Assembly (NCBI GenBank): GCA_038209025.1
Contig: JBBQYD010000001.1
Coordinates: 1 to 49,708, forward strand
Direction of reading: 5' to 3'
DNA: 49,708 nucleotides
Source: Verrucomicrobiota bacterium
GTDB taxonomy: Bacteria; Verrucomicrobiota; Verrucomicrobiia; Limisphaerales; UBA8199
The notes under the pieces were generated by a model, which was not told where the DNA came from, searched no databases, and saw only the letters and a list, made by a program, of their open reading frames with translations. A program made the translations under genes and the position numbers. Below, piece after piece: positions 806-49,708 of the stretch; within the stretch, counting starts at the first letter, position 1, and each line of letters opens with the position of its first letter.

Positions 806-809
806 AAAA

Positions 810-11073: not shown

Positions 11074-11076
11074 GGC

Positions 11077-17556: not shown

Positions 17557-18360
17557 CTACGGCTTCTTGATGCTGGTCCTCGCCTTCAGCCAGTCGAAGT
17601 CTGCCAGCGGGGACGCGGAGAATCTGTCGAACCTCGTCCGCCGCACCGGGCGGATGGTGCTGGGGATCTGCCAGCGATGGTGCTCCACATGGCCATCCAC
17701 AAAGGAGAGGTTGGCCGCGCCATCATGATAGGACCCCGGCAGATTGCCCCAGAGATTCTCCTCCAGCGAGTTCACAAAAAAGCCGTCATTGAGGCTGTCC
17801 GCGTTCTCATCCAGGAAAACGAGAATGCCGGAGGGAATTGGGACCTGGGCCTTCTTGAAAAACTGCGTGTAAAGCGGGTTGAACCGATTGGTCAGCTCAC
17901 CCGGATTGCCCACCATCGCGTTCATTGACATGCTGCGAATGTGCGGACCATTGGGGGCGGGCTCCCGGTCTGCCGGGCATTTGTAAATCTGCGCGGAGCG
18001 GTTCGCGTAGGGTCCCAGCTTGGAATCGGTCAGATAGACCAGGTTGGTATTATCATCACTGGCTTCCCAGTCCTGAACATTGTTGGCCCAGGTCTGGCGG
18101 CGGGCCAGGCTTTCCGGCACACCGTGATTGTTGACGAGCAAATCGCTATTGTCGTCGGCATACAACAGCCAGGCCAGCTTGAGTTGCTTCAAATTGTTGA
18201 CGCAGACCGCCGACTGCGCCTTGGCCTTGGAGTTCCCCAGGACCGGCAACAGCAGAGCTGCCAGTATCGCAATGACGGCCAGTACCACCAGCAACTCGAC
18301 CAGGGTGAACGCGCACCGGCCGGACGGGGTTCCCGGGTGCCGGCTTGAATTGGTGGCCAT
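17557..18360 (-). CDS. Prepilin-type N-terminal cleavage/methylation domain protein, H-X9-DG class
   Basis: The ATG at 18360 gives MATNSS...CAFTLVELLVVLAVIAILAALLLPVL. The C-terminal HDGAANLSFVDG fits H-X9-DG. Confidence 0.85.
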   Translation of the reverse strand: MATNSSRHPGTPSGRCAFTLVELLVVLAVIAILAALLLPVLGNSKAKAQSAVCVNNLKQLKLAWLLYADDNSDLLVNNHGVPESLARRQTWANNVQDWEASDDNTNLVYLTDSKLGPYANRSAQIYKCPADREPAPNGPHIRSMSMNAMVGNPGELTNRFNPLYTQFFKKAQVPIPSGILVFLDENADSLNDGFFVNSLEENLWGNLPGSYHDGAANLSFVDGHVEHHRWQIPSTIRPVRRTRFDRFSASPLADFDWLKARTSIKKP

Positions 18361-18676
18361 GGGGTTGGTTCGCGACGGTGGAGCTTGAGGGCGCTTACCG
18401 AGGAACCGGCACAAGCAGCCAGTTTTCTGGGGCTGGGGACCTGCCCTCATGAGACTTTAAACAGTTGATCGGAACACTTCGAATTGCCACGCAGCAGAGA
18501 CTGCCCGTTTGCCGGCCGAAAACAATCAACAAAGAGGAAAAACCTGGGCGCCGGAATCAGCGGCCGCCTCAGTGCCGGATGCCCGGGGCGTTACCGGGCA
18601 GGACTCGCCCGCCGGTTTGCGGCGCCCGATTGACGGTCCAACCTCCCATCGGTCAAAGGCGCGGGCGGCGAACCGG

Positions 18677-22032: not shown

Positions 22033-22200
22033 AGGGTTATTGGGCGAGATGAGATTTCCTGGGTGCACCACGATATTCCGCATTCGAACCGATTGGCCAT
22101 CTTCGGCGATATCCGATTGGCATTGGGAAACATGCATGGATTTCCTATTCTGGCAACACAGAATAGCACGAAGAAAAGTCCGCGGTTTATGGGGTGTTAA

Positions 22201-22605
22201 CCCCGTGGGCTTCTCGAACAACTGAAGGTGGCAGCGCCTGACGGGATTGATGTCTATTTTGACAATGTGGGCGGCGAAACCCTGGAAGCGGCGCTCTCCA
22301 CGCTGCGGGTCCATGGCCGCATCATCGCCTGTGGCGGCATCTCCGGTTATAACGATGAAAAACCCAGGCCCGGCCCTTCGAATCTTTTCAATGTGATCAC
22401 CAAACGACTGACGATGAAAGGACTGATCGTTCGCGATTGGCTGGATCGTCAGGGCGAGTTTGAAAAGGAAGTGGGCGCCTATTTCCGTGCCGGCACGCTG
22501 AAGAGCAAGGAAACCGTGGTGGAGGGGATTGACCAGGCTGTGAACGCTTTTCTCGGTCTGTTTCAGGGAAAGAACCTGGGGAAGATGGTGGTGAAACTGG
22601 GCTGA
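22201..22605 (+). pseudogene. 5'-truncated NADP-dependent medium-chain oxidoreductase (PTGR/CurA/YncB-like), C-terminal third only
   Basis: PDGIDVYFDNVGGETLEAAL...GRIIACGGISGYN...NLGKMVVKL is the C-terminal part of proteins of about 340 aa. The frame is closed by a TAA at 22198-22200, and no N-terminal domain lies upstream. Confidence 0.75.
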
Positions 22606-23587
22606 CTTCGTTCATTCTCGCCCCGGCTCTGAGGGGGGGCCTCCATGTAACGAGCGCGTGCCCAAGCCGCCACCTGGAAAAACCCGCATCGGCCTGAAAG
22701 TTCGCTCTAGCGGTCCCGTCGAGGACACCGGTTGCATTCCAAGTGGCCAAGTCTGCGCCACCAGCGGAACTCCGATGCAACTCACCAACAACCACCCGGC
22801 AGGTTCACCCGTTAACCGTTCTTGGAGTTGAATGCCACGCCGTGGAATCTAACCATGTGAAAGTGAAGCCGACTGGGATCAACCGGGTGGCCGCACAACT
22901 CGCACGGCAATGCGCCGACCGACACTGGGATCGGTTGCTCCACCAGTGGTTTGGTTGCTTCCCGGCGGCGACCCCTGGCTCGTTGCCCGGCCTGCCTGCC
23001 GTTCGGTGCCCGCCGACCCTGCCTTTTTGGATTGGTAAAAGTTTTCGTTTCACCAATCTACCATTGATCCTTGGCCACCGCATGCAATAAAAGCACCCGG
23101 GTTGCTGAAAGGTTCGCCAGCGAGACTTGCTTACGGTTTGCCGGTGGAAAAGAAATAACCAGCGACCCATTTCCTGGGGTTGGCCAGCCTATGGCTGCAA
23201 TGCATTACAGCGCACCCGCAAGAAACCTTGCCGTTCTCAAGTTATGTTGAGGGAATGAGCTTTGCGCTTGCCTGCGAGTTTTTTGATTGCGTAGTGGATG
23301 CCGTTAATGCAATGACGATACCAGCCGGGATGGTTGGGAACCTTCCAAGCGGTTGCCGCAGGCGGCGGCGGGCGGATTGTATGTCCTCGTATTGCTGCAG
23401 GATCTGATGGGCGGCATTCCATTGACCAGACAGGGGAGTTTCCTGCCGTGAATGTTACGCCGCCCACTGCCACCCTGCACGCACTCTTGCCGAAGCAACA
23501 GGATAAAGAAACCCTGCAAAAAGTTGCATCTGCGTATTGAATTCCTCGACAGGAATCCTATAGTGCGCCTCAGCGTGGATCATCTAA

Positions 23588-25528
23588 ATGAGCAATTGTA
23601 GCGACGAGTCTCAGTCCTGGAGCATTCAGCAGGCCCGAATGCTGTATAACATTCATCGGTGGGGGGCAGAATACTTTGACATCAACGAAGCCGGTCACGT
23701 GGTGGCCAAACCGCAACGCGAGGCGGGCGCGGCGGTCGAGTTGACTGATGTCATTGAGGAAGCCAAGGCGCGCGGGTTGAAGTTTCCACTCCTGATCCGC
23801 TTCCAGGACATCCTTCGTCACCGGGTGGAATCCATCAATCTGGCCTTCCGGAACGCGATCACCGAATTTGGCTACCAAGGCAGGTATCGCGGGGTCTTTC
23901 CGGTGAAGGTGAACCAACTGCGGGAAGTGGTGGAGGAAATCCTCGATGCGGGAAAGCCCTTTGACTACGGCCTGGAAGTTGGGAGCAAGCCCGAGCTGTT
24001 CGCGGGCTTGGCGCTGCAAAATCAAATGGGCAGCCTTATTGTGTGCAATGGCTACAAGGACGCCCAGTTCATCCGCATGGCCATCCTCGGCATCAAACTT
24101 GGCAAACGGGTGATCATGATCGTCGAGAAGCTGGAGGAATTACGCCAGATCATCGCCATTTCCAAGCAACTCGGGGTGGAGCCCATGATCGGAGTTCGAG
24201 CCCGCCTGCTGAGCAAAGGCGCCGGCAAATGGGCTGAAAGCGCGGGGGAGAATGCGAAATTTGGCCTGAGCACAGCCGAACTGCTGGAAGCCACGCACCT
24301 CCTCAAATCTGAGAACCTGTCGCACTGTTTCAAGCTGCTCCACTTCCACATCGGCTCACAGGTGCCGGATATTCTGATCGTCAAGCGAGCCGTTCAGGAA
24401 GCCGCCCGTTTCTACGCCAAACTTTGCAAGATGGGCTTCACCATCGAATACCTGGATGTCGGTGGCGGCCTGGGGGTGGATTACGACGGCAGCCGCTCCG
24501 CCTTTGACAGCTCAACCAACTATACCCTGCAGGAATACGCCAACGACATTGTCTATTACATCGGCGATGTGTGCAGCGCGGAGAAGGTGCCGCACCCCAC
24601 CATCATCAGCGAAAGCGGGCGCGCGGTGGTGGCCCATCACAGCGTGCTGATCGTGGAGGTGTTTGGAGCCATCGCCAAGTTGCGTCCGGCGGGTGCCTTC
24701 GATTACGGCGAAAGCGACCACGCCCTGGTCAGGGAACTGATGGACATCAGGAAGAATCTCCCGCGTCTGAACAAACTGGAGGCCTACCATGACGCGCTGG
24801 AAAGAAAAGAGGACGCCCAGCACATGTTCACCCTGGGGATGCTGGACCTGCCGGAGAAAGCCAGGATAGAAACCTTGTATTGGGAAATCAGCCAGGAGGT
24901 GGTCGAAAGCTTCAAGGGCCAGGCCTACATACCGGAGGAAATCCGCAAGCTCGAAGACAGCCTCGGTGACCAGTACCTCTGTAATTTCTCCGTGTTCCAA
25001 AGCTTGCTGGACCACTGGGCGCTCGGCCAGCTCTTCCCGATCATGCCCGTGAGCCGCCTGGATGAACGACCCACCCGCGAGGCCACCCTGGTCGATATCA
25101 CCTGCGATTCAGACGGCCAGATCAACAAGTTCATCGACTTGCGGGACGTGCGCGACACCCTGCCTCTCCACCAGCTCAACCCCAATAGCAACGGCATGCC
25201 GGAGCCCTATTATATCGGTTTTTTCCTCATGGGCGCCTACCAGGACATCATGGGCGATCTGCACAACCTGTTTGGGCGGGTCAACGAGGTTCACGTCTTC
25301 CTGGACGCCGATGAGCCGGCCGGATATTACGTTGAGGAGATCATCGAAGGAACCACCATTGTCCAAGCGCTCGATTCGGTGCAATACGATGAAAAGGAGT
25401 TGAAACGCCAGATGAAAGCCCAGGTGGATGAAGCGATCAAATCCGACCGGATGAAACCTTCTGAAGCCATGCGCCTCCTGGACGACTACGAGCGAGGCTT
25501 GCGCGAGTACACCTACCTCAGCTTCTAG
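23588..25528 (+). CDS. speA: Biosynthetic arginine decarboxylase
   Basis: 646-aa ORF. WSIQQARMLYNIHRWGAEYFDINEAGHV, FPVKVNQ (PLP lysine region) and the overall length are typical of SpeA. Confidence 0.95.
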   Translation: MSNCSDESQSWSIQQARMLYNIHRWGAEYFDINEAGHVVAKPQREAGAAVELTDVIEEAKARGLKFPLLIRFQDILRHRVESINLAFRNAITEFGYQGRYRGVFPVKVNQLREVVEEILDAGKPFDYGLEVGSKPELFAGLALQNQMGSLIVCNGYKDAQFIRMAILGIKLGKRVIMIVEKLEELRQIIAISKQLGVEPMIGVRARLLSKGAGKWAESAGENAKFGLSTAELLEATHLLKSENLSHCFKLLHFHIGSQVPDILIVKRAVQEAARFYAKLCKMGFTIEYLDVGGGLGVDYDGSRSAFDSSTNYTLQEYANDIVYYIGDVCSAEKVPHPTIISESGRAVVAHHSVLIVEVFGAIAKLRPAGAFDYGESDHALVRELMDIRKNLPRLNKLEAYHDALERKEDAQHMFTLGMLDLPEKARIETLYWEISQEVVESFKGQAYIPEEIRKLEDSLGDQYLCNFSVFQSLLDHWALGQLFPIMPVSRLDERPTREATLVDITCDSDGQINKFIDLRDVRDTLPLHQLNPNSNGMPEPYYIGFFLMGAYQDIMGDLHNLFGRVNEVHVFLDADEPAGYYVEEIIEGTTIVQALDSVQYDEKELKRQMKAQVDEAIKSDRMKPSEAMRLLDDYERGLREYTYLSF

Positions 25529-30241: not shown

Positions 30242-32530
30242 TTACTGCGCCAGGCGCAGTTCAAGGATTTCCTGGCCGTAGGCAGGCAGGGCCAGCGTCA
30301 ACTTGCCCGCCTGAAGTGCTTCGCCCGAATAGCGGCCCAAAACCTTGCCTGACAATGCGGCGGTGACTTCGTAAGCCTGTTTGGTTTGCGTCCACGGGAC
30401 ATTGATGGCGCGTTTACCCGCTCCCCCGGCGCCCCGCACCACAACCACCGCCCCGGCGCCCTCCCGATTCAATTTACCCCACCAGTGCCAATCCTCATCG
30501 GTCGGCCCAGGCACACCGCTGAACTGAAAGTTCCGGTAAATGGAATACTCCCTTTCCAAACGTTTCAATAAATCAAACCGTCGCCGGTAATGCCGCACCT
30601 GGTCCTCCGTCAAGGATGCAAGGTCCCCCGCGTACGCCGCCGGAGCCCCCATAAGCCAACTGCAAATCTGACGGTCCTGGACCTCCGCGGTGAGGCTGCC
30701 GCGGAAGTTCACCGTGTGGGCCGCGTAATACTCCAAGGCATAGAGCGGGAGTCCGCGATGGGCAAAAAAACGCTGGCGGGCGTTGTAGCAGCCCGCAATC
30801 AGTTGTCGGCGCAACGTTGCCGGATCATACGCCCAACTGTCGCTGACCCGTTGTTTGGGATGGCCAACCCCGGCGTAATCGTTGGGTGGAATATGGTAGG
30901 CCGCCGCATGTTTCAGTACCGCCACATCGCAGGGCACCCCGGGGGTGCCCCAATAGATTTCATGAGTAATCTGCGACACCACCCCAGGGGCATGCCGCCG
31001 CAGCAGGTCTTGCGATTCCAACAGACCCCGCAATCCACGCAGAAGCGATTCCTTCCGGGTGCGGCTCTCGTGCCCTTCAGCCAGGTCTCCGAATTTGATG
31101 TTGGTGTAGTCCTGTTTAAAGTACGCGGCCCCGAAGCGCTCGCTGCGCCGGGCGAGGTCCCGCGCGTAGAACTCTCGCCAGGGACTGGCAAAACTCATGC
31201 CGAACCCGCCGTCACGCTTGATCAGCGGAACACTGCGGGCGTTCGGCAAAGCCCGCATATCCGGCGAATCGGCGGTGCGGAAGCAGGAAACCCAGAGGCC
31301 CAACTCAAGTCCGAGTGAGCGAATCTCCCGGCCCGTCGCTTCGAACTCGGGAAACCTGGCGGGGTCTGGTTCCGTGCCGATGGTGTCCCGCTGCCAACCA
31401 GAATCGAGCAGCAGAAGCACAAAGCCGCAGCGAGCCGCAATCCCGGCTTGCTCGCGGACGACGCGGTCGTTAATGGCCCAGCCAAAGTTTGACCAGGAAC
31501 ACCATTGCGGTGCCAGAATGGGTCCGGCGTCAGCCGCAATGCCGACCTGCCGCCGGAGAAAATCGAGATACACCCCTTCCACCGCGCGATCGCGAGCGGT
31601 GGAAACGGCGGAGAGCGTTTTCCAGGTGTCGCCGCTGTAAGCCAGCATGAACACGGGCTCGGAAACGAAGCGTTCCCCGGGGCCGAGCACCCATTCGAAA
31701 AGTTCCTCGGAATAACCCATGGCACCCGTGGCGGCGGTGTGCCGCAAAGCGGACGGAACCTCGTTGACCAGGATCAGTCCCCGTCGGCCAGCGGGATCGC
31801 CAAACGCAATGACGCACGGCCCGGCGCCCCGCTCGCCGGGAGTCAATGGTTCCCCGTGCTTGAAGTCCGTCCCGAGTTCAAAGTCATCCACCACCAGGTT
31901 CGAGAGCTTCAGCCACAGATTGCCCGCATTGGACACTTCAATCCATTTGCGGACCGCGGGAAAACCGTCGTAAATCTCAAAACAAAGCCTGACTTCGAGA
32001 CCCTTCAGCGGTGAGTTGGGCAATCCCTGGGCCGGAATGGTTAAGAGGCGCCGACCCGGCGCGGGCTGGGAAATCGTCACCTCGCCCGTTCTGAGATCCG
32101 GCCCCCAGGCGTTGGCCGCCAGCCGGGTTTGATCCCGCCAGGAGAGGGAGTCACCATGATTGGTCACGGATCGCGCTTCACGCAACCCATCGGTGCCGGA
32201 AAAATGGGCGGTGGTTTCAAGCGCGCTCGTGTCTTCGGCGGCCAGGCCTTTGGGCTTTCGGTTCGGGCTGGCGAAAGAAACGTTGAATGTCACGTCAGCC
32301 GCGGGCCGCGCCAGGCACTCTTGACCAGCAATCCGGATGCTGGCCGTGCTCGCCAGGCCGCCATCCACCCGAATCTCCCGGGAAAGAACTCCCGCGGTAA
32401 TTTGGATTTTGCCCGATGTTTGGCTGATGCCCCAGGCAGGGGCAGCCGACCCGCCTGCCGCGGTGAGGCACGAGAGGCTCAGGCCCAGGATGGCCGGCCA
32501 ACCCGGCGGCCGCCTACCAGAAATCGCCAT
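30242..32530 (-). CDS. Secreted clan GH-D-like (GH36/alpha-galactosidase-like) glycosidase, family unassigned
   Basis: Signal peptide ([19 protein letters not shown]), plus the motifs [13 protein letters not shown] and [11 protein letters not shown]. Its ATG at 32530 overlaps the upstream pseudopilin gene by 17 nt. Confidence 0.6.
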
Positions 32531-33320
32531 ACAGGTTCACGGGTGAGCTCATCAAGTAATTCGCATAGGCCGGGGGAAAACGAAAGTTTTTCACGCTCGT
32601 ATCACCCATGAGCAACGGAAACATTTGTTTGCCTTTGTCAGCATGCCAGCTCGTGCGCGAGTCTTTCGGGTCCCGGTTGGCATACCAATTCCAGTCCCCC
32701 AGCACGATCTTGGAACTCGGCTTCAGCGCCACCCGGGCACCTCTAATCGACTTCCAGGAAAACACACCGTTGACCAGTTTGCCCCCCACGTGCTCCACCC
32801 CGAAGTAATCTTTCCAGGCAATGTTGTAGGAATTGCCCCAGGCATCCCAGCAATTCTTCTGGACGGTGGGCCACCAGAAACTGTCGCCGCGGTCGGCCGG
32901 ACAATGGAACACCTCCACGTTTCGAACCACCGTGTTCAGCGGGCGATTGGTCACCTCAACATTGCCGCCGTGCAGGGAATTGCCTGGAACCTCGGTGCTG
33001 GCGCCACTATTCGTCCCCCGCTGCCCCCCGTAGGCGGCCCAGTCCTGAAAAGCCGGGAAGTCATCGTTGTTTTCATCCGCGTAGATTTGCATCGCGATCC
33101 CCATCTGGTGCTGGTTGCTGATGCATTTGGTGAGTGTCGCCTTGGTTTTGGCCCGGCTTAGCGCGGGAAGCAGCATGCCAGCCAGGATGGCAATTATCGC
33201 AATAACCACCAGCAACTCGATCAAGGTGAAGGCGCCGCGAGCCCCGCCCGCCGGCCGCTGGCGGCCAGCGCCGGGCAGTTTGGGCGGCCGCCCGCCGCGA
33301 AAGGTTCTCCGATTCATCAT
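32514..33320 (-). CDS. Prepilin-type N-terminal cleavage/methylation domain protein (degenerate H-X9-DG class)
   Basis: The ATG at 33320 gives MMNRR...[30 protein letters not shown]. The start lies 8 nt after the stop of the giant upstream gene. Confidence 0.8.
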
Positions 33321-33328
33321 GTGACCTG

Positions 33329-36300
33329 TCAAGGGTATATCAGCCGATAAAACCCGCACCCGGATGTGGCAGCGGGCCAAATCACCCGGTTGGTGGTGGC
33401 AGACCCGCTCACGGTGATCCAATTGGTGGTCAAGCCGGTGCTGGCCGAGTTGGTTTGAAACTGCAGGGTCCAGCCCAGGTGCCCGGCCGGCCAGGATAGC
33501 TCCAGGGATTTATCCACCGGGTTGAGCATCACGGTAATGTTCGTAGGGTAGGTCGCCGCGCCCTGCTTAAGCCGCAAGGTGCCGTCCGTGCTCAGGGTGC
33601 TGGTGTCCCAGGCCAGCCCAGGGACCGGCACGGAGGGGACAATCGTGGCAAAGACGCCCGCATAACTGGCTGCCGAGAAGAGCTTGAAGGCATCGCTGGA
33701 GACCAGAGCCGGACTGCCGGTGAGGTTCAGTTTCAGGGTGCCTCCGTAGGTAAGCGTGGAGACGCCGTTGATGCTATCCTGGGTGGTGGTGGCGCCGGAT
33801 TTCCGCAGGGTCATTTCGATGGTTCCGTTGTTGATCATGTTGCCCAGCACATTGACCGCGCCGTTGGGCTTGCACACCTGGCCCGAGCTGAGCGTGAGCG
33901 TGCCGTTGGCCCGGGCGGCAGCGTCAAGGGTCGTGCCCGCCGCCAGCACCAGCGGGGTGGAGTTGGGAATGGCGCCGTTGCCGCTGAGCACCAGGGTGCC
34001 GGCGTTGACAACAGTGTCGCCACTATGGCTGCTGACGTTCGTAAGCACGAGCGAACCGCCTCCGTTCAATGTCAGGCTTACCTTGCGGGAGCCGGGACCC
34101 GCGTCGGCGAACACACACCCGGTGACCCAGGGAGCGTCCGCCAGGGAGGTCGCCACGGTCAGGCGCGAGTCGCTGGCGCCACTGCTATTGGTGATAATGG
34201 TCACGGGCGTGGCGCGCAGATTCTGCAATCCACTGACCGTCTGGTCATGCCCGGCCAGGTCCAAAACTCCACCGTCGGTGCGGAGTGTGGCGGCGGTGGC
34301 AACCGCGTCCTGGTTGCCGAGCTTCAGAACCCCGGCCAGGATGCGAAGGAACAGAAACGAATTACCGGTGGACCCCAGGGTCCAGGTGCCCCCGTCATCC
34401 TTCTGAACGCCCGCGCCCGGCAGGGAAATTGACCCGCGAATCAGGTTGTTCGTACCCGCGCCTCGGAACGAGATGAGATCGGTAAAGGCGGGGCCGCTAA
34501 TCGGGCCGTTGATTTCGAGGGCCCCATCAATGGACCTCACAATCATCGGACCGGCGCCACTAATCACTATCGCGCTGTTGATGCTGTTGGTGCCGCTTTC
34601 ATTCAAAATCCCCGCCCGGTTGTTGGCATCCACCGTATTGGCGGTCAAAGTGGCGTTCGCGGCCACTGCCGCTCCGTCGCGCAACGTCAGGCTGGTGCCA
34701 TCGCCGGCCCCCACACCGTTCAGCGTGATATTGGTTGAAAGGCCCACGGCGGCGGCGCCCACCGTCAGGTTGCCGCGATTCACCGTAACCGATCCGCTGA
34801 ATGTGTTGCTGCCCAGCAGGCGCAGGCTCAACGTGTTGTCCTTGATCAACTCACCCGGACCCGTGATCGAGTTCGACAGCGTAAGGACGCCCACGCGATC
34901 GAAGCGCAGGACGGCTTGGTTGGTCACGGGGCCGGTCCCGAGTGTGCCCCGCGTCGCCGCAACGCCTATCAAGTCACCCGCCCCTATGGTCAGCCGGCCG
35001 GATTCAACCAATGTCGGGCCAGTGTAGGTGTTGTCGATGTCCAGCGTCAGAGTGCCGAAGCCTTGCTTGGTGATGCGCGAGGTGCCCACGATCGCTCCAT
35101 TGGTCGTGCTGGAAAACACGTAATCGTAATCCGAATTCACCAGCACCGAGAGCGGATGAACCGGACGAGGCAGGTTGACATTAGGCGAGAGCCACCCCGC
35201 CACGCCAAAAAGCACGTTGTCGCCTTCCGAGTAGGCGAGGTCAGCCGCGCTGTCGTTGTTGCTATCCCAGAACAGGGAGACGCTATCCCAGTCGGCCGGG
35301 TTGCCGGTGCCCACCCAGCTCAAATTAAGCGGCGTGCGAACGACCAGCCGGGCCACCGTGCTGGTCTGCGCGTTGACCATATTGGTGACCACCACATCAT
35401 AGTTGCCATCATTGGTAAGCTGGGCTGAATCGATTGTGAACCAGTTGGAGGTCGCGCCGTCAATCGGCTGCTCATTGAAACGCCATTGATACCCGAAGGG
35501 CGCGGTTCCAGAGGCGGAGACTGAAAAGCTTGCCGCCTGGCCGACCGCGACGGTCACCTCCGCGGGCGGCGTATCAATCACCACCGGCAGGTTCTTGATC
35601 GCCAGCACGGCCACGTCGCTGGTCCGGGAACCGACTGAGCTGTTGATGACCACATCGTAATTCCCGATGTTTGTCTCCGCGACGAAGGGGATGAGATAAT
35701 TGCGGTTGGTGGCCTGGTCGATGGGCACTGCATTGAACCGCCATTGGTAGGCCAGGGGATCGGTTCCAAAAGCGGTCACCCGGAAGGGAGCCGACTGGCC
35801 CTGCTGCACAGTCTGGTTGGTTGGTTGCTCGTAAATGGTGATTGGAACCTCGATTTTGCTGGTGTTAAACATCATCTCGTTGGCGGCGCGCGCTTTCTTG
35901 CTCAGGCGCACTTCGTCGATCAAACCCACAAACGCGCCATTGGGGGTTGAGCGGCCCACGTTGCCGATCGCGAAGTCGGGGGTGCCCACCGCCAGGGGAT
36001 TGAGGTTGCCCATGGTTCCGGTGCCTATCAGAGCCGCCTCCACCCGGCTGGGCTCCATGAGCGTCCAATAGAACTTCAAGGTCCCGCCCGCGGCCGCGCC
36101 ATCAAAGGTAACCGCCACATGATACCAGTTGCCCTGGATGATCGCGTCGGGGCCGGTGACGGGAATGGGGACCGCCGCCCCGGAGTTGCCGGTACTGTTG
36201 AATAAATGCAGGATCATCACCCCGGACCCCGCCACGCCATTGGTGTGCATCCGCAATTGAAACGGCCGGTTGGCACTGCCATCATTTTCGGCGGTCACGA

Positions 36301-38240: not shown

Positions 38241-38450
38241 GAGCCTATCTAAGGACGCACCCCAGCGGGGCATCCCGGCAATCACGGGGAACAACGTCAG
38301 CATCCTGAGCCCTGTATACCCCTGCGCGGACGAGTTGACCAGTCCTTTTGCCGGGGCAGGGTGCGCCACGCAAAACAGCGGTGCCGCTCAAAATACGCGG
38401 TGTAAACGGGAATGGCACGAAGATAAGGAATCGCTCGTTTTGGGCTCTTC

Positions 38451-38960
38451 TTAGCGTTTGGGTGCATCTTTCATCAAGTGCCGGGGCCGAGTCATAAAGG
38501 GATAGGCTTTCGGACGGCGTTTTTGGCAACGAGGTTCGCGTCGGTCCGGACGTAGCGGCAGCAAGTCGGCCGCACGCCTTTGCGGAAGTCGCTGTTGCGG
38601 CTGGCGTGGAGGTGGAAGAGGCCATCGGTTTGGTGGAAAAGTTGGAGGGAAGCCAGGGACGCGTAGGAGCAGAAGTTGCGGTCCCCCACGAGGATGTCGC
38701 CCGGACAGAAAGTGGGCCACAAGTCCAGGAAGAGGGCATTCGGGTGAAAATGCGCTCCCGGCTGTTGTCGCCGGTGGCGTTCGGTTCGAGCAGCCGCGGG
38801 TCAATGCGCTGGGCACAGAGGCTTTCCAAGTGATGGAGCGGGCGGCGGCGCAAAGCCAGGCAGGCGTGTTTGAGCGGCGAGTGGAAGGAGCCCAGGAGCG
38901 GAGCGCTGGTAAACAGTAGTGTCTGTATGTATACAGACCCACTGCTTGACAGTCACGCTC
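38451..38960 (-). mobile_element. Internally deleted, frameshifted IS4-family-like transposase remnant
   Basis: DILVGDRNFCSYASLASLQL...HLHASRNSDFRKG resembles the first-Asp region of DDE IS4-type transposases. After a frame change it is followed directly by RPDRREPRCQKRRPKAYPFMTRPRHLMKDAPKR*, which resembles the family's extreme C-terminus. The central catalytic part is missing, and the boundaries are approximate. Confidence 0.5.
38914..38944. repeat. Imperfect 31-bp palindrome with a perfect core gtctgtat-gt-atacagac
   Basis: The perfect 8-bp arms lie at 38921-38928 and 38931-38938. The outer arms cagtagt/ccactg extend the pairing with one indel. It lies between the divergent transposase remnant and the small ORF at 38980. 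Confidence 0.7.
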
Positions 38961-38979
38961 AATCTTGCGATTCTTGGGA

Positions 38980-39321
38980 ATGCCACGAGAAACCAAACAT
39001 CCCTTGGGCCTCCTGCCCGCTGCCTATCAAAGCCTGCTGGCCCGCCTAGCCCGCTCCGGTTGGTTCTGCCAGGGCAGCGTCGTCTGCCGTTCGCTGCGCC
39101 GAAAAGTCGCGGGCAAGTGGGTGGAACGAGGACCGTATTACTTGTGGACCTGCAAACGCGAAGGTAAAACGATCTGTCACGCGCTGTCCGAGAGTCAGTA
39201 CTTGGCGGCTAAGGAAGCCATCAAAGCGAACCGCCAAGTTATGGAAACACTGGCAATATTACAGGGGATGACCCTCAAGACTATCCTCAAAAAAGTGCCC
39301 GGAGTCTCAAAACGCAAGTAG
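38980..39321 (+). CDS. Small conserved-looking hypothetical protein (GPYYLWTCKREGKT motif; possibly DUF6788-like)
   Basis: A protein-like ORF of 113 aa from the ATG at 38980. The motif ...KWVERGPYYLWTCKREGKTICHALSESQYLAAKEAIKANRQVMETL... recalls small proteins often found next to IS elements. The family call is from memory only. Confidence 0.45.
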   Translation: MPRETKHPLGLLPAAYQSLLARLARSGWFCQGSVVCRSLRRKVAGKWVERGPYYLWTCKREGKTICHALSESQYLAAKEAIKANRQVMETLAILQGMTLKTILKKVPGVSKRK

Positions 39322-41981: not shown

Positions 41982-43046
41982 TTATTGTCGTTGGATTGCG
42001 CCCCCCGGATGCGCTCCGCCCACGGCCCTCATTCCCGTGGACCGCGTCAGCCCCAGTGGATAGAGGCCGGGACAGCACCCCATCGTTTCGCAAAAGGCCT
42101 GGCTGAAGTGGCTCAGGCTGCTGTAGCCCACCTCCAGCGCGGCCTCCGTCACATTGAACTTGCCCGACTTCAGCAACTCCGCCGCTCGCTCCATGCGGAT
42201 TTGCCGCAGATACCGCGGAATCGTCATGCCCATTTCCCGGGAAAACGTCCGGCTCAGATAGTATGGACTGCAGCCCACCTCCCGCCCCAATTCCTCCAGC
42301 GGCGGCGGTTCCACCAGTCGCTGGCTCAAAATCTCAATTGCCCGTTCCACCCGCCTCCGGGACACCTCCTGCTGACGCGCCCCGGTCCCGGCTTTCCCGT
42401 CCGCCGGCGCAAAAAAGAACTCCGCCATCAACTCCAGGGCTTTGCTTTGATACCACAGCCCGGCGGCGGCTCCTCCGACCGGCGGCTCCCGCAGGCGCTC
42501 GATGTCTTTGCGCCAGTGCGTCGTCAACCGCACCGGCGGCGCCACTCGCCCCGCATCCCCCTGGCGCCGCAGCGCCAGGCGCACCACCGGGTGCAGCGCC
42601 GCCTCATGGCCCGTCAGGTGCCGCTCCAGGAATCCCGGCGAATACTCCACCGTCAGGAACTGGTGCCGCTCTCCGGGCAATCTCCACGCAGACAGCTTGT
42701 CGTCCGCGGCAGCGTAGAGGCTCACAGTCATCGACCCGAGCAGCACGGACTCCCTCCCACACGTCAGCCGCGCGTTTCCCGACACGTTCAGACAAAGCTC
42801 CACGCTGCCCGGATGAAAACTCCGCGCCCAGTCGCGGGGCTTGTCACATGCAAAATCGTGCCACTCGATGCCTGCCCCCTGCTGGCAATAACACCCGTGC
42901 AGGCATTGCCACCCGCCCCCCAGCGCCTCCCAGACGGCGGCCTCCGCGTAGTCGCAGGCCGGACGCTCAAGCGCCGCCCTCCTCGGCGCCGCCCGCCCCG
43001 CCGTCAGTTCCCCCAGGCAGGGAATCTTGCCATCCAATTTACTCAT
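41982..43046 (-). CDS. AraC-family transcriptional regulator
   Basis: The C-terminal double HTH reads LGREVGCSPYYLSRTFSREMGMTIPRYLRQIRMERAAELL...EVGYSSLSHFSQAFCETMG. The start is set at the ATG at 43046 (or 43055). The track's longer form overlaps a gene fragment on the other strand. Confidence 0.8.
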   Translation of the reverse strand: MSKLDGKIPCLGELTAGRAAPRRAALERPACDYAEAAVWEALGGGWQCLHGCYCQQGAGIEWHDFACDKPRDWARSFHPGSVELCLNVSGNARLTCGRESVLLGSMTVSLYAAADDKLSAWRLPGERHQFLTVEYSPGFLERHLTGHEAALHPVVRLALRRQGDAGRVAPPVRLTTHWRKDIERLREPPVGGAAAGLWYQSKALELMAEFFFAPADGKAGTGARQQEVSRRRVERAIEILSQRLVEPPPLEELGREVGCSPYYLSRTFSREMGMTIPRYLRQIRMERAAELLKSGKFNVTEAALEVGYSSLSHFSQAFCETMGCCPGLYPLGLTRSTGMRAVGGAHPGGAIQRQ

Positions 43047-43169
43047 GACCCTCATTATACCGCCTGACGGTAATTGACGACAGCCGATTCCGCCCAGCGC
43101 GCGAGATGCCTGCCCCCTGGCCACGCGATATACGCCCCAATCAGAACCATCACCGTCGAACTCACATAG

Positions 43170-43436
43170 GGCATTTTCCGGGCGAACTCCGCAAATCCCT
43201 TGAACCGCTTGAACGCCTGGCGCACCACCAGCACCCTGATCGAGACGGATGAAACCGTTTTGCTTCAGCTCAGTAATCCCACGGGAACCACTTGGGTCAG
43301 CCCCGGCAATGCGGTGCTGACAATCCAGGACTGCGATCTGCCGCAACTCGTCATTCAGCCTGTCGCGGTGGGTGGTCAATTCCACGTTACGAAAAGCGTT
43401 GGCGGCTCAAACCAGTTTTTCCGCCGCCACCGGTAA
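43170..43436 (+). pseudogene. Fragment of a surface-protein gene (Calx-beta-like end plus a collapsed C-terminal module)
   Basis: The open frame has no ATG start. ETDETVLLQLSNPTGTTWVSPGNAVLTIQDCD resembles the end of a Calx-beta domain. It is followed by GGQFHV...GGSNQFFRRHR*, a shortened version of the ...FYRL tail. Confidence 0.45.
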
Positions 43437-43555: not shown

Positions 43556-46402
43556 TCAAGGCGCGACTAAGCGGTAAAACACTGCGCCGTTTGCGGGATC
43601 AATGGTGAACATCGCATTATCGGACGTGGTGGAGCCGGGAACATCAACCCAGTTTGAACCCAACCCAACCGCGGTGGAATTAGTCTGGGCCTGCAAGAGC
43701 CACCCGATGTTCTGGGAGGGCCATGACAGGCTGATTTGATTGCCGTTGACCTGGCTCGCCAGGGCGGGCGCCAAACTAATAATGCGCAGCGTCCCATCCT
43801 TGGCGAGGGTGCTGGTATTCCATCCAAGCCAGGGCCCGGGCTCAGGGGGCACAATGCCGGCAAAAGCGCCCAGGTAAGGGCTCGAGAGAGCAGTGGCGGT
43901 GGTGGTGGCAGAGAAGAGTTTGAACGCATCACCGGCATGCGGGGAGCGTCCGCTCATCACCATATTCAGCGTCCCCCCAAACGTCACGGTGTTCAGCCCG
44001 ATCACCCGATCATGAGTTGCGGCACTCAGGTCCGCTTCGAAGTAGCTCGAACTGCCATCGGAAAGGGTCAGGTTGTTGCTGATGGTGAGTGTCCCCATCG
44101 AGGTGCCAGGGACCAGGCTTCCCCCAGCTTCCACCATCACCGGCCCCAGAATGGTTCCCGAGCCCCCCAGCGTGGCGCCAGATTTGACCGAGACCGCGGT
44201 GACGCCAATCGCGCCGTTTACGAGGAGGGTTCCGCTGTTCAGCAGGGTGTCGCCCACATAGTCGTTGGTGGTCGAGAGCGTGAGAATGCCCGTTCCGTCA
44301 TTAGTCAGACCACCGGCGCCGGACAGTTTTCCAGAGCCGCTAAAGGTGAAGCTGTTAGTGGTGTTCAGCTCGATGCCAGCGGGCTCTAACGTTCCCACCA
44401 ACGTGATCGGGGAGGCGGCCGGGCTGGAATTGTCAAAGGTGACGGCGTCGAGATCATAGAACTTCTCAGCGCCTCCGTTCCAACCGGCAGTCGCGTGGAG
44501 ATCCCAGATACTGCCACCGTTGCCACTCCAGATGAGGCTGGTGGCGGGCCCTCCACTCACGGTGAGATTGATGAAGGGAAGGGTCGAAGCATCGAAAGCG
44601 AACGTGAACCGGCTATTGGCAAGCGCGCCGGTGACCTGAATGTTGTTGGTATCACCCACCAGGGTTCCGTAAGTCAATACCGGATAGGTTCCCGGCAGAA
44701 TGGTCCCACCGATCTCCATGGTGTTGATTCCGCTCAACGTCAGGATGTCGGTGACCACCACTTGATCGTTGATCGCCGGGTTGGCGGGATCATTTAAGTC
44801 CATGAGCAGTTTGCCGTTCTCAAACGTGAGACTCCCCTTCACGGTGAGCACGCCAGCGCGCCCCTGGGCCACGGGCGCCAAAGTGCGTCCGGCTTCCACG
44901 ACGAAATTCGTGATCGGGGATAACAGGGTCAAATTGCTAATTCCCAATATATTATAATTGGTCAAGAGCCCGGCGCCAAAATTGAAGTTCCGCACCATGA
45001 CGTTGCCTGGAGAGGTATCCCCCGCAGGCATCATATCCAACCGCCCGTTGTTGGTGATCACGAGCGTGCTTACCCCATTGCCCCCGATGCCGTCGGTTTC
45101 CAGGACGCTACCGGAAACATTCACGAGGCCCGCGTTAATAATCAAGGTTCCCGTACCCTTACCGGTCGCCGCTCCGGAGTCACGTCCGATGTTGATGTTC
45201 TGGGCGACCAAAGTGGCGTTGGTGCGGACCGTAGCGATGCCGGTGGCATTGCCGAGATTGTTGCCCTGTTGGCAGCCGATGTTGAGCGTTTTCACATCGA
45301 AAATCCCCGCACCCAACGTCATGACCCCGGAGGCGCTGCCGGTATCGGTCGCATTGTCCCGCCAGCCGTTGATTCCCAGATCCATTTGGTCAATGAGAGC
45401 ATCCACCTCTCCCGCACCGAGATCCAAATTCCCCCGCGCGACAAAGCTAGCGATGCGGGCTTCACCGTGATCCCCGCAGACGAAACGCGGCACCCGGCTC
45501 ACGCCGTCCGCCGCCCGCAGCTTTAACGTGGGATGGACCAGGCAGGGACGAAAACTCATTTGTCCAATTAGTTTAAGCCCGCCAATTTTGAAGTAATCCG
45601 CGTTGAGAGTGTTTTCCTGTCCCAGGATCACATGGTTGGTCGTGGTCGTGGCGCTTTGGCTTCCCTGGGAATACCCGATCGTGAACGGCTGTGAGACGAT
45701 GGCGCTCGGGTCGGCCGTGCGCGGTGCGGCGCAAATGATCAAGTTGGTTTTCGCCAACAGGACTGAGGCTTGAGGGCGATCCCCCCCCCCCCCGAAAGTG
45801 CCATCCCCCGCCACGACGAATTTGCCCGCCGCGAAAACGAAGTTATCCAGGCCGGACATATCCAGCACGGCGCGATGATTCCCACTGGTAACGCTGGTCT
45901 GCTTGACCTGCAACGTGCTCGCGGAACTCGTGCTCGGTGACGCCGGATCACCCAACACCAGCCGGCCGGTGCCAGTGATGGTCGTATAATTTGAAGCGTG
46001 CAATCCATCGTCCAACCCGGTGCCCACATAGAAAAAGTTCGCGGTGGGCGCCTTCGCGGTCAACACCGCCCCATCGTTGATATAGGTCGTATGCAGATTC
46101 GTAGCCACGCCGTTCGTGAATAGCCCTGAATAGGTCAGCTTGGAAACGGTATAGTCCGCATCCACGGTGTTGTTCACCGCCCCCACGACATTGGTCGCAC
46201 CCTGAACGTTGAACGTCACCGTGTCCGCCGGAACCGGCGTCTGCGCGGGAGACCAGTTGCCGCTGGCTGACCAGCCGTTGGTCGCGGAGGAAAGCCCCGT
46301 CCAGCCCAAAGGCGTGGCCCCGGCCTGGTTCAACTGGGCCAGGAGGCAACCTCCGAAAAGCAGCACGGGGAACAGACGATTCGTTGGCTTCATGGTTTTC
46401 AT
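43556..46402 (-). CDS. Giant secreted PATR-repeat surface protein with a C-terminal SWP...FYRL module
   Basis: The ATG at 46402 (or 46393) gives the signal peptide MKTMKPTNRLFPVLLFGGCLLAQLNQAGA. Beta-strand repeats include GILTLSTTNDYVGDTLLNSGTLLVNG, and the protein ends GAVFYRLVAP. Confidence 0.85.
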   Translation of the reverse strand: MKTMKPTNRLFPVLLFGGCLLAQLNQAGATPLGWTGLSSATNGWSASGNWSPAQTPVPADTVTFNVQGATNVVGAVNNTVDADYTVSKLTYSGLFTNGVATNLHTTYINDGAVLTAKAPTANFFYVGTGLDDGLHASNYTTITGTGRLVLGDPASPSTSSASTLQVKQTSVTSGNHRAVLDMSGLDNFVFAAGKFVVAGDGTFGGGGDRPQASVLLAKTNLIICAAPRTADPSAIVSQPFTIGYSQGSQSATTTTNHVILGQENTLNADYFKIGGLKLIGQMSFRPCLVHPTLKLRAADGVSRVPRFVCGDHGEARIASFVARGNLDLGAGEVDALIDQMDLGINGWRDNATDTGSASGVMTLGAGIFDVKTLNIGCQQGNNLGNATGIATVRTNATLVAQNINIGRDSGAATGKGTGTLIINAGLVNVSGSVLETDGIGGNGVSTLVITNNGRLDMMPAGDTSPGNVMVRNFNFGAGLLTNYNILGISNLTLLSPITNFVVEAGRTLAPVAQGRAGVLTVKGSLTFENGKLLMDLNDPANPAINDQVVVTDILTLSGINTMEIGGTILPGTYPVLTYGTLVGDTNNIQVTGALANSRFTFAFDASTLPFINLTVSGGPATSLIWSGNGGSIWDLHATAGWNGGAEKFYDLDAVTFDNSSPAASPITLVGTLEPAGIELNTTNSFTFSGSGKLSGAGGLTNDGTGILTLSTTNDYVGDTLLNSGTLLVNGAIGVTAVSVKSGATLGGSGTILGPVMVEAGGSLVPGTSMGTLTISNNLTLSDGSSSYFEADLSAATHDRVIGLNTVTFGGTLNMVMSGRSPHAGDAFKLFSATTTATALSSPYLGAFAGIVPPEPGPWLGWNTSTLAKDGTLRIISLAPALASQVNGNQISLSWPSQNIGWLLQAQTNSTAVGLGSNWVDVPGSTTSDNAMFTIDPANGAVFYRLVAP
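45781..45793. repeat. Homopolymeric C13 (G13 on the coding strand) inside the PATR gene
   Basis: Thirteen consecutive C residues, read on the coding strand as ttc ggg ggg ggg ggg gat (FGGGGD, residues about 203-208). This is by far the longest homopolymer in the window. Confidence 0.95.
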
Positions 46403-46746: not shown

Positions 46747-49708
46747 TTACTCGCCCTGGACGCGATAGAACCTCGTGTCCCCGGGCAGAGTGTTGGTGAA
46801 TGAGGTGGTGGTGCCGGTGGCGAGGATCGAGGCGCCGAGAGGATCCCAGGAACCGGACGAAAGCGTCTCGCGCGAGCGCACCTGATAGGTGTGTCCCGGG
46901 ACGCTCTTCCAAGAGAAGACCACACTGCCGCCGATGGGGCTGATATGGACAATGGGGAACTGGGTCAATGGCGCCCGGTAGTCAGGGTTTATCATGAACG
47001 CCTTCAGGCCGTTGTTGCAATCGAGGGCGAACAGATAGTTGCCGCCGAAAGCGGTGACGCCCACGCCGCCCACCGTGACGTTCGGGTTCAGCGTAGCGAA
47101 CACCTCCTGGTCCCGCAGCACCGGGCCGGAGGCCAGGTCCGGGACTTCGTAAAGCTGCACGTTATGAGAGAGTTCGAGGGCGATGCCGGCCAGGAACCGT
47201 TGATTGAAGCCGGTCGAGATCCCGCGCAAAGAGGAAGAGACGGCGTTAGTCGAGAACTCGCGCAGCACCGAACCGGTGTTGGAAGCCAGATCGAAGCCAA
47301 CCAGGTACAAAGGACCGTCCACCACCTTGGCCCAAAAGGTGTTGGGACCCGGGCCGAAGGCCAGGCCGAGCCGCGCAAAGCCGGAGGGCACGCCGCTCAC
47401 GGCGATCACGCTGGGTGGCACCTCATACTGAAAATCGAGCCCGCTGGTGGTTCTGAGCAGAACCACATTGGTGCCTGACCCGGGCGAAAGGAGGATTTGC
47501 GTATCCGCCCCCGCGCCGCGCACCGCGATGGTGTCGCCCCAGCGCTGACCAGGTTGGCCGGTTTGCTCCGGATCACCCAAGAACACGAAGGCGGGCGCGC
47601 TGGCGGACCCATCATTGGGCCAGCGGTAAACCAAGAAGGAGGTCGTGCTGGCGTTCACGGTCACACTGGCTCCGTAAACCGCCCCGTCGTCCGCGACCGC
47701 GACTTGGTTGAGTCCAAGGCTGACGCCCGGCACGGTAACGGGCAACCCGCTCACATCCATGAACCGTTTTTCCGCGCCGGTCAGGGCGTCCAGAACCACC
47801 AGGGCAGGATCGGCGACGGCACGGCTCACGAGCAGCAGATTGGTGGTCAAAGGATTGTAGGCCATGCCCCGCTCGCTGCTGTTGGTGGCGCTCAGGTAGG
47901 AGCGGTCGCCGGGCAGCAAGTTCCAGATGTTGGTCGCCTGGGCGGTGTTGAAGGCTGGCACCACGCTCAGCACCGCGTTGGAGCTGACCGCCTGGCCAAA
48001 CAAGTTGCTGGCTTGCAGGCTGTATCCACCAGCCTGGTTGGTGGTGACGTTGCGCAAGGTGAGGAGGCTGCCAGTGGCTCCGCTGACGTTAGGTCCATCG
48101 ACCAGCACATTCGTGCCGTTGAACAGCCATCGCAGCGTCAGCGGGTCGTTGCCCGCCGCCAGGGCGTTGAAGCTGACCGTGGCTCCCGCCATCACCGACG
48201 CGCCGGCCGGATTCGCCACGATGGTGACCTTCGGCGCGACGTAGTTGGTGTTGAGGGCGAACGCCTTGATCCCGTTGTTCTCGTTCAGCACAAAGAACAG
48301 GTGGTCACCACAAGCGACCGAAGCCCCTCCCGACGAGGCGGCATTTTGAGTGGCGAACACCTCCTGATCGCGGTACAGCGGGCCGAGGGCGAGGTCGGAG
48401 ATATCGTAGAGGCGGACATTGTCGCCCAATGATTCCGCCATGAGCCCGGCCAGGAACTTTTGGTTTTTGTCCACGCCGACGGCGCGGATGGCGGTGGGCA
48501 CAACCACGTTGGGATAGCTCTGCACCACGTTGCCCACGCCCGTGTTCAGGTCGAACTCCACAAGGTACAAAGCGCCCCCCGAGGTCTTGGCCCAGAACGT
48601 GTTGGTGCCGGGGCCGAACACGATGCTGAACCGGGCAAAGCCGGAGGTGACGCCGTTGACCGCGATGACGGCGGGCGGAATTTCATACTGGAAGTTCTGG
48701 CCGGAGAGCGACCGCAACAGCACCACATTGGTGCCGGTGGCGGGCGCCAGCAGGATTTGGGTGCCGGCTCCGGAACCGCGCACGGCGAGGTTGTCGCCCC
48801 AGCGCAAATTAGGCTGCACAGCAGCGGCCGGATCACCGGCAAACAGCAGGCCGGAGGGGTTGAACGGGCCGTCCGCCTGCCAACCATAGATGCAAAGCGG
48901 GGTCGAACTGGCCGCCGTGGTGACACTCACGCCGAAGACCACCCCGTCATCCGCGACCGCGACCGCGTTCAAACCCAGGCTCACATTGGGAACGGAAGGC
49001 GGGATGCCCGAGACCTCCATCGTATGTTTTTGCACCCCGGTCAGCGCATCGAGCACGATCAGGGAGGGGTCGGCGGCGGCGCGGCTCACCAGCAGCAAGT
49101 TGGTGGTGAGCGGGTTGTAAGCAATGCCGCGCTCCGTCCCGCCCGCGCCCAGGTACGGCCAGTCCCCGGCGTTGAGCGTCCAAATGTTCGTCATCTGCGG
49201 GGTGTTGAAGACCTTGGTGACACTCAAAGTGGCGTTGGAGCTGATATCGTAATTCACCGCGTTACTCACAGCCAAGCGGTAATCGCCCGCCATTTCGGTG
49301 GTCACAGCGCGCAGCACCAACGTGTTGCTCCTGGCGCCGGCGACGGCGGGACCGTCGGAAAGGAGGTTCGTTTTAAACCAATGCCACTGGTTCGTGATCG
49401 GCGAGGTGCCGCTCACCAACGGGCTGAAGATAACGTTCACGCCCTCATAGACGGCCTTGGAGGCGGGCTGGGAGACAATTTTCGCGGGTAGATTGAGAGT
49501 GGGCACGCCAAAGAAGATTTCGAGCGAGTTCAAAAAGCCGCGCGTCTCCGCGGCGGTGGCTCCCTCGCTGGCCACGTACAGCGACTCGCCCGCCGCCAGG
49601 GTGACCGTCAGCACGCCGAAATTGTTCCCCTCCACGAAGCTGTTCGTGAGCGCCGGCGAAGAGTTGGAGACGGCGGCGGTGGCTCCGTTGGTGGTGAAAG
49701 AGTAGGTG
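46747..49708 (-). CDS. Giant secreted protein with two tandem Ig-like plus propeller-like modules and a C-terminal module ending FYRVQGE; 5' end outside the window
   Basis: The frame is open to the window edge; the track's 49635 start is only the first GTG. It has Ig-like segments (...NQWHWF...GDYRLAVSN...) and two long homologous modules. Confidence 0.8.
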   Translation of the reverse strand, partial: TYSFTTNGATAAVSNSSPALTNSFVEGNNFGVLTVTLAAGESLYVASEGATAAETRGFLNSLEIFFGVPTLNLPAKIVSQPASKAVYEGVNVIFSPLVSGTSPITNQWHWFKTNLLSDGPAVAGARSNTLVLRAVTTEMAGDYRLAVSNAVNYDISSNATLSVTKVFNTPQMTNIWTLNAGDWPYLGAGGTERGIAYNPLTTNLLLVSRAAADPSLIVLDALTGVQKHTMEVSGIPPSVPNVSLGLNAVAVADDGVVFGVSVTTAASSTPLCIYGWQADGPFNPSGLLFAGDPAAAVQPNLRWGDNLAVRGSGAGTQILLAPATGTNVVLLRSLSGQNFQYEIPPAVIAVNGVTSGFARFSIVFGPGTNTFWAKTSGGALYLVEFDLNTGVGNVVQSYPNVVVPTAIRAVGVDKNQKFLAGLMAESLGDNVRLYDISDLALGPLYRDQEVFATQNAASSGGASVACGDHLFFVLNENNGIKAFALNTNYVAPKVTIVANPAGASVMAGATVSFNALAAGNDPLTLRWLFNGTNVLVDGPNVSGATGSLLTLRNVTTNQAGGYSLQASNLFGQAVSSNAVLSVVPAFNTAQATNIWNLLPGDRSYLSATNSSERGMAYNPLTTNLLLVSRAVADPALVVLDALTGAEKRFMDVSGLPVTVPGVSLGLNQVAVADDGAVYGASVTVNASTTSFLVYRWPNDGSASAPAFVFLGDPEQTGQPGQRWGDTIAVRGAGADTQILLSPGSGTNVVLLRTTSGLDFQYEVPPSVIAVSGVPSGFARLGLAFGPGPNTFWAKVVDGPLYLVGFDLASNTGSVLREFSTNAVSSSLRGISTGFNQRFLAGIALELSHNVQLYEVPDLASGPVLRDQEVFATLNPNVTVGGVGVTAFGGNYLFALDCNNGLKAFMINPDYRAPLTQFPIVHISPIGGSVVFSWKSVPGHTYQVRSRETLSSGSWDPLGASILATGTTTSFTNTLPGDTRFYRVQGE
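46998..49482 (-). repeat. Intragenic tandem duplication: two modules of about 400 aa (roughly 48204-49482 and 46998-48203)
   Basis: The modules can be aligned by eye over their whole length. Examples are ERGIAYNPLTTNLLLVSRAAADPSLIVLDALTG versus ERGMAYNPLTTNLLLVSRAVADPALVVLDALTG, and GPGTNTFWAKTSGGALYLVEFDL versus GPGPNTFWAKVVDGPLYLVGFDL. Confidence 0.85.

Follow-up and report, generated by a model that had tools for sequence, protein, structure and literature searches.

A guanine homopolymer within a secreted beta-helix protein gene of a Verrucomicrobiota bacterium as a candidate phase-variation site

The stretch of DNA analysed here (the window) comprises 49,708 bases, a complete contig (JBBQYD010000001.1) of the metagenome-assembled genome (MAG) of an uncultured Verrucomicrobiota bacterium (assembly GCA_038209025.1), and harbors on its reverse strand a gene for a 948-amino-acid (aa) protein, predicted to be secreted and to fold as a beta-helix (43556..46402; ATG start codon at 46402, stop codon included and ending at 43556). 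The open reading frame (ORF) list extends this gene to a TTG codon at 46522, but the alignments of all orthologues begin at the ATG. Within it we identified an uninterrupted run of 13 guanines (G13; 45781..45793, reverse strand), which reads t-C13-g on the forward strand and, on the coding strand, gives TTC GGG GGG GGG GGG GAT (i.e. F203, G204-G207 and D208), the homopolymer spanning the four GGG codons 204-207 and the first base of the GAT codon of D208. The tract occupies nucleotides 610-622 of the 2847 of the gene, and the longest other homopolymer of the window has 7 bases. Intragenic hypermutable repeats (G/C runs of about 8 or more units) characterize phase-variable loci, and G13 belongs to this category.

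The consequences of length changes were followed in silico. At G10, G13 and G16 the frame is kept (about 948 aa), whereas the loss of one guanine (G12) leads into ...GGGGIALKPQSCWRKPT followed by a TGA stop (45739..45741, reverse strand; the end of the ORF 45739-46029) and a 220-residue product, and the gain of one (G14) leads to a TAA stop (45573..45575, reverse strand) and a 276-residue product. A single-unit change separates the full-length from a truncated product, and a second change brings the frame back. These results bear out every sequence-level statement of a preliminary description of the window, made from its letters, which had placed the run at 45781-45793 (FGGGGD at residues 203-208), had noted no other run beyond about 7 bases, and had proposed that with one G lost a TGA would follow 13 codons later, in the tail of the said ORF, truncating the protein ahead of its repeats (residue 220 as compared to a repeat region at residues 697-813). 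The same arrangement could serve programmed recoding, in which transcriptional slippage or a ribosomal frameshift would yield, beside the full protein, a secreted N-terminal fragment of only 220 or 276 aa. Long homopolymers can cause RNA polymerase slippage, and both short products would retain the predicted signal peptide; on the other hand, the alternative frames reach a stop after just 13 and 69 codons, none of the orthologues examined has the site, and A/T runs make up most of the bacterial slippage sites known. Recoding is, in our judgement, highly improbable.

The protein contains 13% Gly (in a genome of 61% guanine plus cytosine, GC). Its residues 1-29 (MKTMKPTNRLFPVLLFGGCLLAQLNQAGA; 46316..46402, reverse strand), delimited by eye, show a basic n-region, a hydrophobic core and an A-x-A-like end, are disordered in the structural model, and probably represent a signal peptide. 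Residues 697-813 (43964..44314, reverse strand) correspond to a putative PATR / autotransporter-associated beta-strand repeat region (PF12951, TIGR02601): the Pfam score for PF12951 (PATR) is below threshold (19.8 bits versus a cut-off of 27) and the NCBIfam score for TIGR02601 is just above it (20.8 bits versus 19.85), with a local match to the EprS passenger in the NCBIfam search. As PF12951 is also found among the precomputed annotations of most orthologues, the membership in the PATR repeat family appears marginal but consistent. The AlphaFold2 model (22-sequence alignment; mean predicted local distance difference test score, pLDDT, 83) is all-beta, and its top Foldseek matches are the autotransporter passenger beta-helices of Ssp, Ag43, EspC, Hap, IcsA and pertactin, with low TM-scores and a consistent fold class; the model suggests an autotransporter-passenger-like beta-helix, and the product is probably surface-exposed. 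At the C-terminus, about 78 residues match fibronectin type III (FN3) and TENCON domains in Foldseek, and the strand pattern of the model points to an FN3-like beta-sandwich at about residues 880-948 (43559..43765, reverse strand). Among the features of type Va autotransporters, the right-handed beta-helix passenger and the signal peptide are both predicted here, whereas the beta-barrel translocator (PF03797) has no Pfam or NCBIfam match in the 948-aa protein, which is therefore not an autotransporter. A motif scan of the same protein recovered 0 GGA[ILV] and 0 FxxN motifs. The preliminary description had spoken of a giant secreted PATR protein: the secreted beta-helix class fits, whereas with 948 aa the protein is large rather than giant, and its match to PATR is weak.

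In the model, the tract is located in a flexible loop (residues 198-210, with the four glycines included; block pLDDT 61) between the strands 194-197 and 211-215. Such a loop should tolerate GGG, GGGG or GGGGG, and therefore the in-frame changes (G10, G16) ought to be harmless. An RTX-type calcium-binding motif was considered by eye and rejected, the loop reading GGxGD and not GGxGxD.

The seven closest orthologues possess the loop GTFGG[A/G/N]GD at the same length, and 21 orthologues are colinear with the protein across the tract site, with no indel. The codon comparison covered the four orthologous loci with DNA (57-67% protein identity), all of which lack the homopolymer and write the loop with mixed codons: GGC GGC GCT GGC in L085 (67% identity), GGT GGC GCG GGC in L086, GGC GGT GCG GGG in L087, and GGC GGC AAC GGG in L006. 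A single orthologue (P0006), compared as protein, shares the reading FGGGGD. Since the loop has mixed codons in 4 of the 4 orthologues read, the homopolymer is lineage-specific, and as the loop length is unchanged its origin lies in base substitutions and not in expansion. Glycines with mixed codons in orthologues are what the preliminary description had named as speaking against its proposal of a switch; however, an identity of 57-67% means that the orthologues belong to other species, and lineage specificity is common among contingency tracts, so that support is removed from the idea without refuting it. The conservation of the loop (GTFGGxGD) at the protein level could also be read as the mark of another role of the sequence, for instance through a G-rich coding-strand structure or a GGG-codon translational pause that aids beta-helix folding or export. 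Such a role seems to us scarcely credible: the orthologues make the same loop with mixed codons, a single G13 cannot to our knowledge form a standard three-tetrad intramolecular quadruplex, and we know of no such mechanism for the protein family.

A conspecific copy was found in none of the protein and contig collections searched. The exact-protein look-up was empty, the protein cluster has a single member, the protein search returned the window's own protein followed by a best non-self match of 67% identity, and the best match of the genome and metagenome scans reached at most 57%. We rejected as a frameshifted allele the 719-aa orthologue P0024 (in L088), which is preceded by an overlapping 261-aa ORF: positions 1156-1165 of L088 are a scaffold gap (run of N), not a homopolymer, and this gap splits the orthologue into called genes of 261 and 719 aa, an annotation artefact that mimics a frameshift. 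The paralogues P0041 (GCA_964458325.1) and P0058 (GCA_040960095.1), considered as sequences of the same MAG, showed no tie to the window; the tetranucleotide correlation with the window was 0.92 for L090 (66.6% GC), versus 0.97 between the window's own halves, and L089 fell outside the 12 most similar loci by tetranucleotide ranking.

The fact that the tract is known from a single MAG contig, with a second copy found nowhere in the searches, is what an assembly, sequencing or polishing artefact would also produce; the true run would then be shorter or interrupted (e.g. GGC GGG GCG GGG), the proposed source being two-colour poly-G read artefacts or homopolymer miscalling (homopolymers are error-prone on several platforms). 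Nevertheless, the frame is intact across the run, the loop is exactly as long as in the orthologues, with which both flanks are colinear, poly-G is absent from the ends of the contig, and the window harbors long uninterrupted ORFs (1138, 1002, 962, 948, 916 and 905 aa), unlike a homopolymer-error-prone assembly, with long intact ORFs covering about 86% of its length. Furthermore, two-colour artefacts are long terminal G tails and not internal 13-mers. The evidence speaks against a misjoin as well, and we hold an artefact to be very unlikely.

We then compared the tract with chance expectations. Under a first-order Markov model, about 0.01 C runs of at least 13 bases are expected per window; with synonymous codons shuffled within each long ORF, a G/C run of at least 13 was present in 1.2% of the window shuffles, and in 0.75% of the shuffles of the tract-bearing gene alone. 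As GGG represents 22.5% of the Gly codons in the window, the probability of four successive GGG codons is 0.0026 per GGGG peptide. The background set consisted of 642 kb of related Verrucomicrobiota DNA, with shuffles performed on 542 kb of ORFs from 87 related loci, and in the 642 kb no G/C run of at least 10 was found. Shorter runs were likewise scarcer than the shuffles predict, both in the window (runs of 7: 1 observed versus 5.5 expected; runs of 8: 0 versus 2.3) and in the 542 kb of ORFs (runs of 7: 14 versus 47.6; runs of 8: 3 versus 14.4; runs of 9: 1 versus 3.9; runs of 10 or more: 0 versus 1.7). In the related loci, GGG-GGN codon pairs occur at half of the expected rate, and all-GGG coding was found for 0 of 259 Gly-Gly-Gly and 0 of 22 GGGG peptides. 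Avoidance of G/C runs of 7 or more is thus evident in the clade. These statistics make the tract remarkable, and they do not give proof of selection.

Long in-frame runs of guanine exist elsewhere in the family. The PATR paralogue P0041 (locus L090, 66.6% GC; gene 10001-13591, forward strand) carries in-frame G7, G8 and G10 on its coding strand (10376, 11222 and 12056), at each of which a change of ±1 truncates the product. We rejected these runs as a family-wide switch, as a run of at least 10 appears in 14.5% of the gene-level codon shuffles (P = 0.145); they show that Gly-rich PATR proteins in GC-rich genomes yield sizeable G runs incidentally. The 57% identical orthologue of L006 (gene 157-3018, forward strand) contains a G9 run, likewise in frame, in another of the Gly loops (1257-1265; TTG GGG GGG GGC, LGGGT, residue 367), where G8 would lead to a stop at residue 373 and G10 to one at residue 427; this run is within the shuffle expectation, and the related loci overall hold fewer such runs than expected.

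On the assumption that the G13 tract is of the same kind, it would be incidental: four GGG codons brought together by drift, where the loop and the protein are both Gly-rich and the genome has 61% GC, neither selected nor used, which may slip occasionally and whose fate would be decay by interruption or pseudogenisation of the gene. The mixed codons at the same loop in the orthologues are in line with this account, as are the in-frame runs of the L090 paralogue (which match its codon-usage expectation), the G9 of the L006 orthologue, and the lack of a second long tract or other switch feature in the window. So is the extrapolation of the shuffle rate, by which 0.012 per 50 kb becomes about 1 tract in a several-Mb genome without avoidance, and about 0.1-0.3 per genome with a roughly five-fold avoidance of runs of 8 or more. 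Against it, the clade purges runs of 7 or more, and therefore an unselected G13 should be short-lived; moreover, the gene is otherwise intact over 948 codons with the consensus in frame, and is of a class typical of contingency loci. We regard an incidental origin, the chief alternative to a switch, as possible, though rather doubtful.

The comparison with characterized systems brings the mechanism into focus. Among the repeat types of prokaryotic coding regions, poly-G/C shows the greatest indel variability, with a steep rise as the repeat lengthens, and is avoided the most (PMC3315296). The autotransporter gene capA of Campylobacter jejuni contains an in-frame G11 that switches from ON to OFF at 1.6e-3 per division, and in the same species the lengthening of G8 to G11 raised mutability ten-fold (PMC3401435). 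The two loci have in common an intragenic poly-G in the gene of a large beta-helix-type surface protein, ON at one length and OFF at ±1, i.e. a translational switch. They differ in that CapA is a true autotransporter with a barrel, whereas the Verrucomicrobiota protein has none, in that the switching rate was measured in C. jejuni, whereas the Verrucomicrobiota locus is known from sequence alone, and in that C. jejuni, which is without mismatch repair, has about 29 such tracts per genome, as compared to one in 50 kb here.

Chlamydia and Verrucomicrobiota share the Planctomycetota-Verrucomicrobiota-Chlamydiota (PVC) superphylum. The chlamydial pmpG genes, which encode beta-helical adhesins, contain polyG 8-19, polyG13 and polyC 13-24 tracts, with abundant frameshifted alleles (PMC6740158). 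Their likeness to the present locus lies in poly-G tracts of the same length range in the passenger regions of beta-helical adhesin genes, with truncation upstream of the C-terminal part. The Pmps, however, have GGA(I/L/V) and FxxN motifs and a barrel, all of which the Verrucomicrobiota protein lacks, and the pmpG tract length varies among strains and paralogues, whereas the Verrucomicrobiota locus is represented by one sequence.

Within the phylum itself, long G/C tracts of Akkermansia were flagged as candidate switches in 2011 (PMC3048395), and in 2026 a slip from G9 to G10 in Amuc_1413 of Akkermansia muciniphila was shown to shorten the product from 735 to 98 aa and to abolish mucin binding, the mutation being present in only 87-91% of reads and 8G, 9G and 10G alleles occurring among published genomes (PMC13055324). 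The preliminary description had regarded tracts of this type as essentially undescribed in Verrucomicrobiota-like genomes, a view that is thus out of date. Amuc_1413 resembles the present case in its intragenic poly-G, in the frameshift with early truncation and in the cell-surface property affected; it differs in being an exopolysaccharide export gene and not one for a beta-helix protein, in its tract (G9 at codon 55), and in that variation was shown experimentally in Akkermansia, which is host-associated, whereas the window's relatives derive from environmental metagenomes. A 2026 paper on the Akkermansia capsule, considered as a further homopolymer precedent, was rejected since it describes an inverton. 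Finally, two mycobacterial reports describe homopolymeric-tract phase variants (e.g. ESX-1-associated and frd operon tracts; PMC11898584, PMC12263978). The likeness consists in a GC-rich genome with homopolymeric-tract indels reported as phase variation, and the difference in other genes and functions, a host-pathogen setting and variation documented in populations.

Taken together, these observations incline us, by a modest degree, towards a real tract with elevated, reversible frameshifting and stochastic expression of the gene. Because poly-G/C is indel-variable, because this variability is steep with length, and because the G11 of capA switches, G13 is very likely a frameshift hotspot, and we infer an elevated slip rate in the Verrucomicrobiota source organism. 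A run of this length would be prone to slipped-strand mispairing at replication, and the population should always hold G12 and G14 variants, whose translation would end at residue 220 or 276, so that the PATR repeats, the C-terminal domain and about 75% of the beta-helix would be missing; another slip would bring the frame back, giving a stochastic and reversible ON/OFF (i.e. phase-variable) locus, of which the assembly consensus would be the ON state.

Several points weigh against this interpretation. The tract lies 21% into the gene and not at its extreme 5' end, it is the sole long tract in 49.7 kb, it is not conserved in any of the four orthologues with DNA, and no conspecific copy that might show length heterogeneity was found in the collections searched. 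Chance tracts from Gly-rich proteins and codon usage would number about 0.1-1 over the whole genome (as extrapolated), and hence a scan of many windows will sometimes meet such a tract by accident; the in-frame G10 of a PATR paralogue in another MAG (L090) is statistically unremarkable. Moreover, switching rates are species-dependent: those published for comparable tracts span 1e-9 to 4e-3, and a designed meningococcal G13 locus switched at about 1e-9 to 1e-8 (PMC4085013). Of the slipped-strand switch put forward in the preliminary description there stand the mechanism, physically plausible for G13, and the fitting gene class, whereas the lack of conservation and a credible chance origin count against it. 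On paper the locus resembles phase-variable systems; as that class is defined by observed variation in tract length, the locus is a candidate member. Maintenance of the tract by selection, as a contingency locus, is a tentative proposition, on the doubtful side. Unlikely, in our estimation, is the more specific scenario of a selected contingency locus in a free-living environmental bacterium (of soil, peat or wood type), in which a PATR protein would be switched for, e.g., escape from phage or predators that use it as a receptor.

The tract-bearing gene is followed, on the same strand, by a gene for an AraC-family regulator (41982..43385, reverse strand; Pfam HTH_18 and HTH_AraC), and the terminator scan found no terminator-like site between the two. 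Given this arrangement, polarity might reduce the expression of the regulator in the OFF state, and the surface switch would then be coupled to a regulon. The promoter and terminator scan around the tract was otherwise uninformative, and no Rfam match was found at the tract site. Upstream, on the same strand, lies the gene of a 962-aa immunoglobulin (Ig)-domain protein (46747..49635, reverse strand; Pfam Ig_3 and I-set), which contains an internal tandem duplication of two units of about 420 aa, with several direct-repeat families of 70-85% identity at a spacing of about 1257-1263 nt. None of the inverted-repeat pairs flanks the interval between the ATG of the tract-bearing gene (46402) and the stop codon of the upstream gene (46747) (the inverted-repeat pairs of the window are 14-27 nt long, imperfect, and 305-5795 nt apart); an inverton is excluded, as no inverted repeats bracket the promoter region, and no other repeat-based switch was found near the promoter. 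In a related locus (L089, GCA_040960095.1), a C9 run (24121-24129) is situated in the intergenic region between two divergent genes (22223-23848 on the reverse strand and 24353 onward on the forward strand), and could be a promoter-spacing tract.

Genes with a prepilin-type N-terminal methylation domain (N_methyl) recur beside large secreted PATR, Ig or cytochrome genes, both in the window (32514-33422, 17557-18450 and 5574-6371, all on the reverse strand) and in other loci (L086 9793-11355; L087 13056-13862; L088 3447-4226; L089 8744-9646). They are located directly downstream in the window and in the three orthologous loci, and upstream of the PATR gene in L089; the tract-bearing gene is followed by the AraC-family regulator gene instead. 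A 905-aa protein of the window (19597-22314, reverse strand), in which MtrC/MtrF-like multihaem cytochrome domains occur together with Big_9 and PKD domains, could be of the extracellular electron-transfer type; a similar cytochrome gene adjoins the PATR gene in L089. A group II catalytic intron match (RF00029; 38165-38242, reverse strand) covers the full model length with 59.8 bits (gathering score 40; E = 2e-9), and for the ORFs just upstream of it on that strand (38245-38853 and 38451-38996) Pfam returned neither a reverse-transcriptase nor a maturase match; it may represent an ORF-less or degraded intron. For two further large ORFs on the reverse strand, 30242-32530 (762 aa) and 7720-9915 (731 aa), Pfam returned nothing at E <= 1e-3 and E <= 1e-4, respectively. 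Between 22001 and 26000, the G+C fraction dips to 0.56-0.58 (0.61 in the whole window), and an arginine decarboxylase gene (23588-25528) lies inside this segment.

The mechanism considered here is a textbook one, demonstrated within the phylum for Amuc_1413 of Akkermansia and, as regards beta-helical adhesins, within the sister phylum Chlamydiota, and the gain would be a further example and no new concept: the locus is a plausible new instance of a well-known switch type, with a credible incidental origin. As in-frame G runs of 9-10 arise near the codon-usage rate in GC-rich genomes with Gly-rich repeat proteins, one tract in one MAG is weak evidence for an evolved switch. The PATR family is hugely expanded in Verrucomicrobiota and Planctomycetota, very abundant, and almost without experimental characterization. 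Should the tract vary in length, it would offer a simple and testable way into what a PATR beta-helix protein does, and would represent repeat-mediated bet-hedging outside host-associated bacteria. If, moreover, the switch proved to be a selected one, repeat-driven bet-hedging would extend to environmental bacteria of the PVC superphylum and to the PATR family.

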